DNA of 64,000 bases from Escherichia coli (GTDB lineage Bacteria; Pseudomonadota; Gammaproteobacteria; Enterobacterales; Enterobacteriaceae): the NCBI RefSeq assembly GCF_001677475.2, contig NZ_CP015229.1. One strand, 5' to 3'. Each line of letters opens with the position of its first letter. The stretch's first letter is position 1. Shown piece by piece: positions 4,185 to 57,883 of this stretch. The notes under the pieces are model-generated. The model did no database searches. It was not told the DNA's origin and was given only the letters and a program-made list of their open reading frames with translations. Both the position numbers and the translations under genes were made by a program.

Positions 4185-5264
4185 ATGCAAGCGGCAACTG
4201 TTGTGATTAACCGCCGCGCTCTGCGACACAACCTGCAACGTCTTCGTGAACTGGCTCCTGCCAGTAAAATGGTTGCGGTGGTGAAAGCGAACGCTTATGG
4301 TCACGGTCTTCTTGAGACCGCGCGAACGCTCCCCGATGCTGACGCCTTTGGCGTAGCCCGTCTCGAAGAAGCTCTGCGACTGCGTGCGGGGGGAATCACC
4401 AAACCTGTACTGTTACTCGAAGGCTTTTTTGATGCCAGAGATCTGCCGACGATTTCTGCGCAACATTTTCATACCGCTGTGCATAACGAAGAACAGCTTG
4501 CTGCGCTGGAAGAGGCTAGCCTGGACGAGCCGGTTACCGTCTGGATGAAACTCGATACGGGTATGCACCGTCTGGGCGTAAGGCCGGAACAGGCTGAGGC
4601 GTTTTATCATCGCCTGACACAGTGCAAAAACGTTCGTCAGCCGGTGAATATCGTCAGCCATTTTGCGCGCGCGGATGAACCAAAATGCGGCGCAACCGAG
4701 AAACAACTCGCTATCTTTAATACCTTTTGCGAAGGCAAACCTGGTCAACGTTCCATTGCCGCATCGGGTGGCATTTTACTCTGGCCACAGTCGCATTTTG
4801 ACTGGGTGCGCCCGGGCATTATTCTTTACGGTGTATCTCCGCTGGAAGATCGCTCCACCGGTGCCGATTTTGGCTGTCAGCCAGTGATGTCACTAACCTC
4901 CAGCCTGATTGCCGTGCGTGAGCATAAAGCCGGAGAACCTGTTGGTTATGGTGGAACCTGGGTAAGCGAACGTGATACCCGTCTTGGCGTAGTCGCGATG
5001 GGCTATGGCGATGGTTATCCGCGCGCCGCGCCGTCCGGTACGCCAGTGCTGGTGAACGGTCGCGAAGTGCCGATTGTCGGGCGCGTGGCGATGGATATGA
5101 TCTGCGTAGACTTAGGTCCACAGGCGCAGGATAAAGCCGGGGACCAGGTCATTTTGTGGGGTGAAGGTTTGCCCGTAGAACGTATCGCTGAAATGACAAA
5201 AGTGAGCGCTTACGAACTTATCACGCGCCTGACCTCAAGAGTCGCGATGAAATACGTGGATTAA
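4185..5264 (+). CDS. alr: alanine racemase, biosynthetic
   Basis: 359 aa; PLP-lysine motif [10 protein letters not shown]; located directly downstream of dnaB as in E. coli. Confidence 0.95.
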
Positions 5265-5288
5265 TCGTTCTGTAATATTTGATTGTCT

Positions 5289-5322
5289 GTGCCGGATGCG
5301 GCGTGAATGCCTTATCCGGCCA
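5289..5322. repeat. REP (repetitive extragenic palindrome) element
   Basis: GCCGGATGCGGCGTGAATGCCTTATCCGGC imperfect palindrome typical of E. coli REP. Confidence 0.75.
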
Positions 5323-46291: not shown

Positions 46292-46332
46292 GGTAGGCTC
46301 GGGTGAGGGGGCCAGCGAGCACATTCTCCCCA

Positions 46333-53685: not shown

Positions 53686-54411
53686 TCAGTGCTCCATAGT
53701 GAATTCAATCATGTCGGCGCGCGTCAGGCTGACGGAGTACTCCGCCGGGCTGCTTTCACCGTCACGGTGGTTAAGGGTGCGCACGCACAGCAGCGGCGAC
53801 ATATTCGGGATTTCAAGACGCTGGCACTCTTTGGCCTGGGCGCGGCGGGCGCTGATCCGCGTCTGGCTGCGGCGCAGCGCAATCCCCGTTTGCTCGCGCA
53901 GAAAATCGTGCAGCGAGCCGCTGTCGAAGCGTTGCAGCGTCGGCCAGAGAGTAAGGTCCGCGAAGTAGTGGTCGATTAAACAGAGCGCGACGCCGTTGAC
54001 CCGACGCAGGGTGCGCAGGTGGATGACGTTCTCGCCCTCGGTTATCCCCAGCGCGTCAGCGACGTGACCGGAGGCGGGGCGCAGCACCGACAGCAGTTTT
54101 TCGCTGGTGGGATGGCTGCCCTGGTCCAGCAGGTTCTGGCTAAAACGCGCCTGGGCGTTGAGCGGGTAATCGAACGGGCGCATCAGCACCAGCACGCCGA
54201 CGCCCTGACGGCGTTGTACCCAGCCTTTTTCCACCAGTTGGTCGATGGCGCGGCGCAGGGTGTGGCGATTCACCTCAAAGCGCGCCGCCAGTTGCTGCTC
54301 GGCGGGAAGATAGTCGCCGCAGCGATAGTGTTGACGAAGCTCCTGCTCAAGTTTTGCGGCTATCTCCTGATAGCGTGTTGGGTAGCTGGTCGGATGTGTA
54401 GACAAGTGCAT
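53686..54411 (-). CDS. phnF: GntR-family transcriptional repressor of the phn operon
   Basis: 241 aa; N-terminal GntR HTH, UTRA effector domain. Confidence 0.9.
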   Translation of the reverse strand: MHLSTHPTSYPTRYQEIAAKLEQELRQHYRCGDYLPAEQQLAARFEVNRHTLRRAIDQLVEKGWVQRRQGVGVLVLMRPFDYPLNAQARFSQNLLDQGSHPTSEKLLSVLRPASGHVADALGITEGENVIHLRTLRRVNGVALCLIDHYFADLTLWPTLQRFDSGSLHDFLREQTGIALRRSQTRISARRAQAKECQRLEIPNMSPLLCVRTLNHRDGESSPAEYSVSLTRADMIEFTMEH

Positions 54412-54431
54412 AGCTATCAATGCCTCGCTTA

Positions 54432-55211
54432 TCAGATAAAGTGCTTACGCAACCGTTGAGAGAGGAAATCCAGCAGGCTGACCGTGACGATAATCAGCAC
54501 CATCAGGGCGCAGGTTTGCTGGAACTGGAAACCGCGAATCGCTTCCCACAGCGTGACGCCAATTCCGCCTGCGCCGACCATGCCTACGACGGTCGCCGAA
54601 CGGACGTTGGATTCGAAGCGATAGAGAGAATAGGAAATCAGCAGCGGCATCACTTGCGGCAGCACGCCGTAGAGGATCTCTTCGAGCTTGTTGGCACCAG
54701 TGGCGCGAATACCTTCCACCGGGCCGGGTTCAATTGCTTCTACCGCTTCGGAAAGCAGCTTGGAGAGCACGCCGGTGGTGTGGATAAACAGCGCCAGCAC
54801 GCCAGCGAACGGGCCAAGGCCGACGGCGACCACGAACAGCATGGCGAAGACCATTTCGTTAATGGCGCGGCAGGCGTCCATCAGGCGGCGTACGGGCTGG
54901 TAAACCCACCACGGCACCAGGTTTTCGGCGCTCATCAGGCCAAAGGGGATGGAGAGAACCACCGCCAGCGCGGTGCCCCAGACGGCGATTTGCAGCGTGA
55001 CGGCCATTTCGGTGAGGTAATCCTGCCACTGGCTGAAATCGGGCGGGAAGAAGTCGGCGGCGAACGTCGCCATGTTGCCGCCGTCTTTAATCAGCGTGAG
55101 CGGGGCCATTTCCGCGCCCTGCCACGAGACGACCAGCACGGCGAGAACAATGGCCCAGCTCAGAAGCGAGAACCAGCTGCGCTTGGGTGGGGCGATGGTG
55201 ATGGTTTGCAT
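54432..55211 (-). CDS. phnE: phosphonate ABC transporter permease (apparently intact)
   Basis: 259-aa uninterrupted ORF with ABC permease TM pattern. Confidence 0.9.
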
Positions 55212-55233
55212 ATATTGCTCCGTTTAATGTTTT

Positions 55234-55325
55234 CTCCCTCTCCCTGTGGGAGAGGGCCGGGGTGAGGGCATCAGCGTGCGCATTTCCCCCTCACCCTAAC
55301 CCTCTCCCTCAAGGGAGAGGGGACC
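55234..55325. repeat. GC-rich intergenic palindromic repeat cluster between phnE and phnD
   Basis: nested inverted repeats CTCTCCCTGTGGGAGAG, GGGTGAGGG...CCCTCACCC, CCCTCTCCCTCAAGGGAGAGGGG. Confidence 0.6.
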
Positions 55326-55336
55326 GATCGAGCACA

Positions 55337-56353
55337 TTACTGCACCGCTTTACTCACCGAACTCATCGCGCTTAACGCGTTGTTCAGGCGGTCCAGGTCA
55401 TCCAGTTGCGCCTGAATCTCGGTGGTTTTCGCCAGTTTGTCCTGCTCATTCAGCCCTTTATTGCCTTTCACACCCTGCATCTCTTTAAACAGCGCGAGCT
55501 GGCGAATCGGCACCAGTTGCAGGTCGCTGGAGGCGCGGAACGGGGCCCAGCCCAGGCGCTCCAGCACCGCTTTCTCTTCCGGCGTTTTGCCGTAGTTCAT
55601 AAAGAAGTCGTAGATCTTGTCTTTGGTGGTTTCGGAAAGATTTTTGCGCCAGACGATCGGATCGCCTGGGATCAGCGGCGATTTCCAGATCACCTTCAGT
55701 TCTTTGAGCTTCTCCGGTGCGGAGGTTTTCAGCTTGTCGAGGTTTTCGGTGTTGTTGGTCGCCACATCCACTTGTTTGTTGGCGACGGCCAGCGCGTTGG
55801 TTTCATGCCCGGCGTTGACGGTGCGCTTGAAGTCGCTGGCGGAAATATTGTTTTTGGCGAAGACGTAGTAGCCGGGGACGAGGAAGCCAGAGGTGGAGTT
55901 AGGATCGCCATTGCCAAAGGTGAGATCTTTACGCTTCGCCAGCAGATCGTTCAGGTTGTTGATCGGACTGTCTTTGTTGACGATCAACACGCTCCAGTAA
56001 CCCGGCGATCCATCCGCCGCGACCGTCTGGGCGAAGACCTGACCGTTGGCGCGATCCACCGCTTCCATCGCCGACAGATTGCCGTACCAGGCGATATCCA
56101 CTTTGTTGAAGCGCATTCCCTGGATAATGCCCGCGTAGTCCGGGGCAAAGAAGGCGTTGACCTTTACGCCCAGCTTCTTCTCCATATCCTGTAAGAACGG
56201 CGTCCATTGCGGTTTCAGGTTTTGCTGTGATTCCGTTGAAATAATGCCGAAATTCAGCGCCTTTTCCTGCTCTTCGGCGTGCGCCGGGCTTAACAGGGTG
56301 CTGAGGCTGAACATGCTGGTGAAGGCCAGCGAGGCAATTATCTTAGCGTTCAT
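55337..56353 (-). CDS. phnD: phosphonate ABC transporter periplasmic binding protein
   Basis: 338 aa, signal peptide. Confidence 0.95.
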   Translation of the reverse strand: MNAKIIASLAFTSMFSLSTLLSPAHAEEQEKALNFGIISTESQQNLKPQWTPFLQDMEKKLGVKVNAFFAPDYAGIIQGMRFNKVDIAWYGNLSAMEAVDRANGQVFAQTVAADGSPGYWSVLIVNKDSPINNLNDLLAKRKDLTFGNGDPNSTSGFLVPGYYVFAKNNISASDFKRTVNAGHETNALAVANKQVDVATNNTENLDKLKTSAPEKLKELKVIWKSPLIPGDPIVWRKNLSETTKDKIYDFFMNYGKTPEEKAVLERLGWAPFRASSDLQLVPIRQLALFKEMQGVKGNKGLNEQDKLAKTTEIQAQLDDLDRLNNALSAMSSVSKAVQ

Positions 56354-56377: not shown

Positions 56378-57166
56378 TCAGGCAGCTTTCGCGTTTTCTT
56401 CGACGCGGTTGATGCTGCGGTAGAGATGGTCAAAACGTTCGTTATCAAACTGTTGGCTGCTGCCGTCGTAGAAGACGTGCCCCTGGCGCAGGGCGACGAT
56501 GCGTTCGCAGTAGCGCAGGGCGTAATCCACCTGATGCAGCGTGACGACCACGGTAATGCCGTCGTTCTGGTTAATGTCGCGCAGGGTGTCCATCACGATG
56601 CGCGCCGATTCCGGGTCCAGCGAGGCGATGGGTTCATCGGCCAGAATTACCTTCGCCTGCTGCATCAGCGCGCGGGCAATCGCCACACGCTGCTGTTGCC
56701 CGCCGGAGAGGGTGGAAACGCGCTGATGGGCAAAATGCACCATGCCAACGCGGGTCAGCGCCTGTAACGCGCGCTGTTTCTGCTCGCGGGTGAACCAGCT
56801 AAAACAGGTGCGCCAGAATGGCGTGCTGCCGAGCGCGCCAATCAGCACGTTCTCCAGTACGCTCAGGCGATTCACCAGGTTGAATTGTTGGAAGATGTAG
56901 CCGGTGTTGGCGCGGCTTTTGCGGATATCGCGGGCCAGGCGGCCTTCGCGCTGGACTGTGCGGCCCAGCAGCTCGATATGGCTACCGGCAGATTTATCGC
57001 CGGTAATCAAACCGCTTAAGTGACGTAAAAGGGTGGATTTGCCGGAACCCGACGGCCCAAGCAGAGCCACCATTTCACCGTGATGAATGTTCAGATCAAC
57101 CGCGTGCAGCGCCTGATGCTGATTGAAGGTTTTGGCGAGCTTCTCGACACGGATAATCGTTTGCAT
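56378..57166 (-). CDS. phnC: phosphonate ABC transporter ATPase
   Basis: 262 aa; Walker [13 protein letters not shown] signature LSGGQQQR. Confidence 0.95.
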
Positions 57167-57807: not shown

Positions 57808-57883
57808 GCCTGATAAGACGCGGTCAGCGTCGCATCAGGCTGTCGGCATCGTTGCCGGATGCGGCGCGAGCGCCTTATCCGGC
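57808..57883. repeat. BIME (two REP elements) between yjdN and yjdM
   Basis: GCCTGATAAGACGCGGTCAGCGTCGCATCAGGC and GCCGGATGCGGCGCGAGCGCCTTATCCGGC. Confidence 0.8.

Follow-up and report, generated by a model that had tools for sequence, protein, structure and literature searches.

The DNA analysed here, referred to as the window, is a stretch of 64,000 nucleotides from Escherichia coli. Four genes of the phn operon lie around the element under study, all on the minus strand (coordinates are those of the window):

56378-57166, minus strand: phnC (ORF list and annotation of matching genomes)
55337-56353, minus strand: phnD (ORF; annotated as phnD in matching genomes)
55337-55339, minus strand: stop codon TAA of phnD (from ORF 55337-56353)
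55212-55336: phnD-phnE spacer, 125 bp, between two minus-strand ORFs
55209-55221, minus strand: start region of phnE, with the RBS GGAG at 55218-55221 and the ATG at 55209-55211 (sequence and ORF)
54432-55211, minus strand: phnE, intact (ORF and annotation of matching genomes)
53686-54420, minus strand: phnF (ORF list and annotation of matching genomes)

The genes phnCDEFGHIJKLMNOP form one transcription unit, in which the 12 genes 3' of phnD need read-through from the phnC promoter. The flanking genes had been named phnE and phnD in a sequence-only reading of the window, and both the ORFs and the annotation of matching genomes agree with these names. The GGAGC core of the phnE RBS is kept in all E. 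coli alleles and in most other species. The window's phnE is intact at 259 aa; compared with it, phnE of K-12 MG1655 (K-12 locus L001, positions 4444-5282) has one additional 8-bp unit in a short tandem run (CGCCAGCA), at a site corresponding to about 54803, and this unit gives rise to the known phnE frameshift pseudogene. The RefSeq start of K-12 phnE1 (L001 position 5282) is placed within the REP pair, with the ATG that matches window position 55211 lying 51 nt further downstream, so that this annotated start is to be used with practical caution.

A repeat search of the spacer located nested inverted repeats of CCCTCTCCC/GGGAGAGGG at 55236-55244/55248-55256 and at 55300-55309/55312-55321, together with a 27-nt arm pair (55242-55268/55288-55314) that contains GGGTGAGGG/CCCTCACCC. 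These repeats combine into a single near-perfect palindrome, or hairpin, of 86 nt (55236-55321). The nested repeats between phnE and phnD reported in the sequence-only reading are thus confirmed by repeat search and fold; the length of 90 bp given there is close but inexact, the measured hairpin being 86 bp and the unit conserved across the family 108 bp. Folding of the RNA, which that reading had proposed as a check, yielded -77.6 kcal/mol for the transcribed (minus) strand (z = -7.6; 0 of 200 shuffles equal) and -72.8 kcal/mol for the plus strand (z = -6.8; again 0 of 200), while the unit as single-stranded DNA folded at -31.5 kcal/mol (z = -5.6). The pattern CCCTCTCCC-N1-8-GGGAGAGGG occurs twice, both times in the spacer and nowhere else in the 64-kb window, with 0 occurrences expected by chance.

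We identified the element as an inverted, tail-to-tail pair of BoxC units, a family assignment that sequence comparison makes virtually certain. Its parts are as follows:

55229-55336: complete BoxC inverted pair, 108 bp, two units of ~54 bp tail-to-tail (span matching the K-12 hrpB-mrcB copy)
55229-55235, plus strand: head of the type B unit, GTTTTCT (similar heads precede most K-12 type B units)
55236-55268, plus strand: type B BoxC/TM-ECO motif, CCCTCTCCC-TGT-GGGAGAGGG-CCG-GGGTGAGGG (exact consensus match)
55269-55287: central spacer, formed by the tails of both units and making the loop of the long hairpin (RNA and DNA folds)
55288-55321, minus strand: type A BoxC/TM-ECO motif, CCCTCTCCC-TTGA-GGGAGAGGG-TTA-GGGTGAGGG (exact consensus match)
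55322-55336, minus strand: head of the type A unit, TGTGCTCGATCGGTC as read on that strand, adjoining the phnD stop codon (K-12 type A heads are alike)
55233-55323, minus strand: predicted stem-loop in the phn polycistronic mRNA (RNA fold of -77.6 kcal/mol)

BoxC was reportedly first named in the early 1990s by Bergler et al., and we know of no transposase for it. The same motif has been described under three names: BoxC in the 1990s, PIT by Hoyne and Maher in 2000 (for 'potential intrastrand triplex'; Hoyne et al. 2000, in PMC4666352), and TM-ECO by Holder et al. in 2015 (PMC4666352). Its consensus is 5'-CCCTCNCCC N3-6 GGGNGAGGG N3 GGGNGAGGG-3', with subtypes set by the second loop, TTA in type A and CCG in type B, and all five of the five inverted pairs in K-12 join one type A with one type B unit (PMC4666352). 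In the window the consensus is matched exactly twice, at 55236-55268 on the plus strand and at 55288-55321 on the minus strand, with 0 matches expected in shuffles; the second loop is CCG in the plus-strand unit (type B) and TTA in the minus-strand unit (type A), in agreement with the A+B rule.

Comparison with individual K-12 copies gives the same picture. The type B half is letter-identical to TM-ECO no. 1 and no. 4, and the type A half equals TM-ECO no. 2 except for one trailing base. TM-ECO no. 1 and no. 2 are located between hrpB and mrcB, and alignment with this copy shows near-identity across 108 bp (55229-55336), with similarity ending abruptly on both sides and the sole differences falling in the central loop (55269-55287). 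Similarity among BoxC copies thus reaches past the triplex motif and defines a unit of about 54-56 bp whose ends are conserved. The heads also correspond: among 16 K-12 units extracted from nine loci, GTTTTCT or a near variant (GTGTTCT, CTTTTCC, TTTTTCT) precedes most type B units, and type A units are preceded by a head like GYGCWCRATCGGTC, which is exact in L002 and L003 and looser elsewhere. All testable defining features of BoxC are present in the window element, and we found no structural difference between it and the K-12 copies. The 'other small enterobacterial intergenic repeat class' to which the sequence-only reading had likened the element is thus BoxC, both halves being exact consensus matches. 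That reading was also right in setting the element apart from the REP family elsewhere in the window: the REP core GCCGGATG/GCCTGATG, a ~35-bp imperfect palindrome, is absent from 55212-55336 and present in the K-12 allele, and canonical REPs stand elsewhere in the window, for example at 24608/24628 and 57828/57854. A search of Rfam 15 at a permissive E-value returned only generic hairpin (miRNA precursor) models, at no more than 28 bits against gathering scores of 55-168.

Canonical REP cores (GCCGGATGCGGCG / GCCTGATGCGACG) occur in the window at 5291, 24608-24640, 35124, 57828-57866 and 63520. Two of these sites are inverted pairs (BIME-like), one of them close to the phn promoter region, a short way downstream of yjdN.

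BoxC is rich in GC and occurs in many dispersed intergenic copies on the chromosomes of E. coli and other Enterobacteriaceae, with no association with mobile elements; it is absent from Salmonella enterica subsp. enterica. In K-12, 23 copies have been studied in detail, and 63 loci were catalogued across 56 strains (PMC4666352). The family and the A+B pair arrangement are therefore already known, and the copy described here is absent from K-12, where a REP pair sits. The phnD-phnE locus, being free of BoxC in K-12, consequently lies outside the 23 copies studied in detail, and in the supplements of Holder et al. (PMC4666352) a search for the two gene names turned up the K-12 yjdP-phnP copy alone. 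The repeat, so far without a name in the window, can be called BoxC/PIT/TM-ECO, and its annotation should be that of a repeat rather than that of a gene or regulatory site.

The K-12 copy between yjdP and phnP is a complete BoxC unit (TM-ECO no. 22). At the corresponding place in the window (46296-46325) there is just a 3' remnant of it (GGGTGAGGGGGCCAGCGAGCACA); the C-stem and the first G-stem are gone, and the sequence upstream is unrelated. The window and K-12 thus differ in opposite ways in their BoxC content at the two ends of the phn operon.

In the phn mRNA, the predicted stem-loop starts 13 nt past the phnD stop codon and ends ~12 nt ahead of the phnE Shine-Dalgarno sequence. A GC-rich hairpin of such stability, placed where a gene ends, might be an intrinsic terminator or attenuator that lowers read-through from phnD into phnE-phnP, a role that sits poorly with the dependence of the 12 downstream genes on the phnC promoter. 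We found no U-tract after the hairpin on either strand (the mRNA-strand sequence past it is AGAAAACAUUAAACGGAGC), and a promoter and terminator scan called no site on the element. In earlier work, PIT elements acted neither as promoters nor as terminators and left RNA polymerase unaffected (summarised in PMC4666352). The missing U-tract and the published negative assays together lead us to treat a terminator role as excluded for practical purposes, that is, as extremely improbable.

The position of the hairpin between stop codon and RBS also raises an action on translation, in which it would impede termination or ribosome release at the phnD stop codon, or mask the phnE RBS. Liang, Rudd and Deutscher reportedly proposed in 2015 that REP elements within about 15 nt of stop codons impede termination and ribosome release. 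The distance of 13 nt in the window falls within this range, and across species (loci listed) pairing begins at a median distance of 3 nt from the stop codon. The minimum-energy fold has GAGCA in the Shine-Dalgarno region of phnE paired with UGCUC of the type A head, in a 5-bp outer helix. This helix is weak, however, and its conservation in REP alleles is not evident, so that we consider an effect on translation very improbable.

To see how the element is distributed, we compared the 125-bp spacer with complete E. coli genomes by BLAST. Matches were present in 5338 of 5426 genomes, at a median of 13 places per genome (range 1-26), with 64497 chromosomal places against 44 on plasmids; the search for further copies that the sequence-only reading had called for thus shows the element to be far from single-copy. 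The 4306 genomes that match at >=80% coverage were considered as a count of the phn locus and rejected, the coverage stemming from the near-identical hrpB-mrcB copy. Alleles at phnD-phnE were instead counted in the 5426 genomes using queries with unique flanks:

Full BoxC pair at phnD-phnE: 361 genomes (6.7%)
Full pair or deletion derivative, same orientation: 1340 genomes (24.7%)
K-12-type REP spacer: 3875 genomes (71.4%)
64-bp collapsed BoxC, opposite orientation: about 180 genomes (about 3%), obtained by subtraction and spread ranking with a palindromic query that also caught collapsed alleles

The junction is strongly polymorphic among strains, and the sequence-only reading's alternative of a single-copy sequence invariant in all strains does not hold. 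Spacer length ranges from 60 to 125 bp among the alleles read. The full pair occupies 124-125 bp (window, L010), and about 980 of the 5426 genomes carry one-hairpin deletion derivatives of it. In three collapsed alleles the deletion could be traced: between two GGGAGAGGG direct repeats (60 bp), between two CCCTCTCCCT direct repeats (61 bp), and between CCCT repeats (67 bp). The REP alleles comprise a 105-bp canonical REP pair in K-12, O157:H7 and PA45B, and the same pair minus 16 bp in L007 (89 bp). The 64-bp allele of L006 has its type A head on the phnE side, its type B head on the phnD side and an 'mm' stem, CCCTCGCCCC. In L006 the entire element is turned round and belongs to another subtype, an indication that it was acquired independently. 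Despite this variety, every E. coli allele examined has a hairpin, with folds of -24 to -73 kcal/mol. Collapsed alleles with a 9-bp stem are commoner in E. coli than the full pair, indicating that the full 86-nt structure is not required.

Collapse of this kind has been described for the family as a 'palindrome effect', and the surroundings of TM-ECO sites are more variable than control sites (PMC4666352). The end points of the three deletions, all in direct repeats, fit this effect. At the DNA level, the long palindrome is unstable: deletions between the direct repeats inside it repeatedly reduce it to one short hairpin.

These observations bring up an explanation at the level of DNA, in which a non-B structure (a purine-motif intrastrand triplex, a G-quadruplex or a cruciform) would stall replication or attract repair and so generate the local variability. 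A single strand of the consensus forms a purine-motif intrastrand triplex in vitro by CD and NMR, and rearrangement is more frequent at TM-ECO loci (PMC4666352). The 21-mer GGGAGAGGGCCGGGGTGAGGG, which equals window positions 55248-55268 (the type B arm), is the Klebsiella pneumoniae G-quadruplex candidate KP-PGQ-5, with melting at 58.6-63.6 C (PMC11170735, a review). The DNA hairpin of -31.5 kcal/mol and the several independent deletion alleles at phnD-phnE are in line with such a structure. Nevertheless, a stable triplex in vivo is not in evidence, DMS footprinting having given no protection (PMC4666352). Moreover, REP and private hairpins occupy the same slot without a triplex or G4 motif, and instability, being a property of the sequence, leaves unexplained the retention of a hairpin in this particular place, behind phnD, by 71 of 73 species (among the loci listed; see below). 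We therefore regard this explanation as improbable.

Each G-rich arm, 55248-55268 on the plus strand and 55288-55310 on the minus strand, has four G3 tracts. One and the same repeat has thus received three independent structural labels in print: hairpin, triplex and G4.

We extended the comparison of the junction beyond E. coli by a PhnD scan of species-representative genomes. The best 80 loci were listed, none of them from Escherichia or Shigella, where the closest relatives would be expected, and the junction was callable in 73, with the phnE start anchored on PKRSWF. Across these 73 the median phnD-phnE spacer is 104 nt long, and the fold of the spacer reaches -19 kcal/mol or better in 71 of them. 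The neighbouring spacers of the same loci, used as controls, are short, with medians of 24 nt for phnC-phnD and 11 nt for phnE-phnF. Pattern matching assigned 31 of the 73 spacers to BoxC, 27 to a REP-like class (Citrobacter, Salmonella arizonae, Cedecea and others), and 15 to 'other'. On reading, the last group was found to contain 7 degenerate BoxC elements (Buttiauxella, Kluyvera), 5 lineage-specific GC hairpins (three in Atlantibacter, one in Enterobacillus and one in L088), and 2 spacers of 22-23 nt without a hairpin (L090 and L091). BoxC motifs in this spacer occur beyond E. coli in Enterobacter, Leclercia, Lelliottia, Kluyvera, Huaxiibacter, Silvania, Pseudocitrobacter and Buttiauxella; the BoxC copies of Enterobacter number more than 100. 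All four possible arrangements of the inverted pair are found at the junction among the loci listed: B+A- in 7, A-B+ in 6, A+B- (that of the window) in 3, and B-A+ in 3.

Two further features of these loci deserve mention. In Pseudocitrobacter faecalis (L019) and P. vendiensis (L020; positions 1501-2800 of both loci), phnD has 96% nucleotide identity to the window, compared with 97% for K-12 and 83-85% for other genera; the P. vendiensis spacer is the same as the collapsed E. coli allele L011, and that of P. faecalis holds two tandem BoxC pairs in 251 bp. This pattern of identities suggests that the phn region may have moved horizontally between Escherichia and Pseudocitrobacter in recent times. 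In addition, expanded spacers of 183-261 nt with tandem partial BoxC-like units occur in L087 (Buttiauxella izardii), L094, L057 and L042, with four ~40-nt repeats of CCCTCTCCCTCAGGAAAGGTGGAAATCCGGTCAAT in L087, suggesting that BoxC fragments were amplified locally.

What, then, is kept at this junction? Adjacent spacers stay short while the phnD-phnE spacer is filled by different palindromic families according to strain and genus. A hairpin is kept whatever its family or orientation, it is specific to the site after the binding-protein gene, and private hairpins stand where there is no repeat, three points that speak for retention of the hairpin itself. The occurrence of all four pair arrangements fits a function that is independent of orientation, as that of a hairpin would be. 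We propose a conserved 'hairpin slot', in which selection would keep a strong stem-loop after the binding-protein gene while REP/BIME elements, BoxC and private hairpins replace one another. This proposal is a tentative one, to which we give a chance somewhat below even. The slot, with REP and BoxC taking each other's place within one species and across genera, is the part of this analysis that goes beyond the literature searched.

A REP element between malE and malF stabilises the message of the upstream binding protein, and the same role has been shown for 3' structures that follow the binding-protein genes of other ABC operons. By analogy, the BoxC stem-loop would act as follows. Lacking a U-tract, the hairpin would let RNA polymerase pass; once an endonuclease had cut the message further downstream, 3'-to-5' exonucleases would be halted at the hairpin; the phnC-phnD segment would then outlast that of the distal genes, and the cell would make more of the periplasmic binding protein PhnD than of the permease PhnE. 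The thing kept would be the hairpin, not a particular sequence. Given its position, its fold and the comparison across species, a function of the stem-loop in stabilising phnCD mRNA is a serious candidate, though we rate its chance just short of even.

The main competitor is a neutral one: the element could be a neutral or selfish repeat that, like REP, spreads by some copy mechanism and stays in this permissive slot only because its insertion is harmless there. The rapid turnover of content at this one site within E. coli (REP pair, BoxC in both orientations, deletion derivatives) is what such a repeat would produce, and the four pair arrangements across genera (loci listed) can be read in the same way. 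No established function for BoxC emerged from the literature searched; the authors of PMC4666352 saw no general regulatory pattern, the published work reports no regulatory activity, and the greater variability of TM-ECO sites relative to control sites accords with neutrality (PMC4666352). The activities listed in that paper's summary of the PIT work do not include mRNA stabilisation (PMC4666352). On the other hand, neighbouring intra-operon spacers are almost never expanded, and in none of the E. coli alleles seen has the hairpin been lost altogether, and we consider a purely neutral origin unlikely, though it deserves to be taken seriously.

A more specific form of the neutral argument concerns the recurrence of hairpins, which could result without selection if palindromic repeats prefer existing hairpins or the 3' ends of genes. 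Repeats that are hairpins by nature may just settle wherever the genome tolerates them, or in hairpins already present; in K-12, 8 of 10 BoxC sites examined lie just 3' of a gene, and the spacers of L090 and L091 do without a hairpin. Atlantibacter, Enterobacillus and L088 speak against this, having neither BoxC nor REP and yet a private GC hairpin at the same place. A tolerated repeat and a functional stem-loop could, moreover, both be partly true.

Together, these considerations lead us to favour, with a little more confidence than an even chance would warrant, a combined explanation: the element is a known BoxC repeat, which as an mRNA stem-loop would stabilise phnCD and as a DNA palindrome is prone to collapse. 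With the full pair, collapsed hairpins and a REP pair all present as natural alleles, E. coli offers a series well suited to testing an RNA role of BoxC.

It is instructive to compare the element with known repeat and RNA systems. Like MITEs and ERIC (IRU) sequences, it is a palindromic, dispersed, non-coding sequence found in some strains and missing from others. Terminal inverted repeats separate from its body, as expected of a MITE, were not recognised, nor was a target-site duplication at the unit ends. When the allele of the window was aligned with that of K-12 and with seven further E. coli alleles, no empty site came to light; the aligned alleles differ over the whole spacer, from RBS to stop codon, so that insertion boundaries are not definable. 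ERIC (127 bp) is unrelated to it in size and sequence. The protective 3' structures described for differentially decaying operons by Dar and Sorek 2018 (PMC5927463) resemble it in being stable stem-loops free of a U-tract after the substrate-binding gene of an ABC operon; phn is absent from the main text of that paper (PMC5927463).

The REP/BIME (PU) elements, among them the intercistronic REPs of malE-malF and hisJ-hisQ, are likewise small, GC-rich, palindromic intergenic repeats, often placed just 3' of genes and inside operons, and a REP pair fills the same phnD-phnE slot in 71% of E. coli genomes. The two families are unrelated in sequence, the window element having no REP-like match, and they differ in mobility: RAYT is a transposase family dedicated to REP, and BoxC has no known counterpart. 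They differ also in what is established of their action, since mRNA stabilisation has been demonstrated for REP, whereas for BoxC we infer it. If the interpretation proposed here is correct, BoxC would be the functional equivalent of REP as a stabiliser of mRNA 3' ends.
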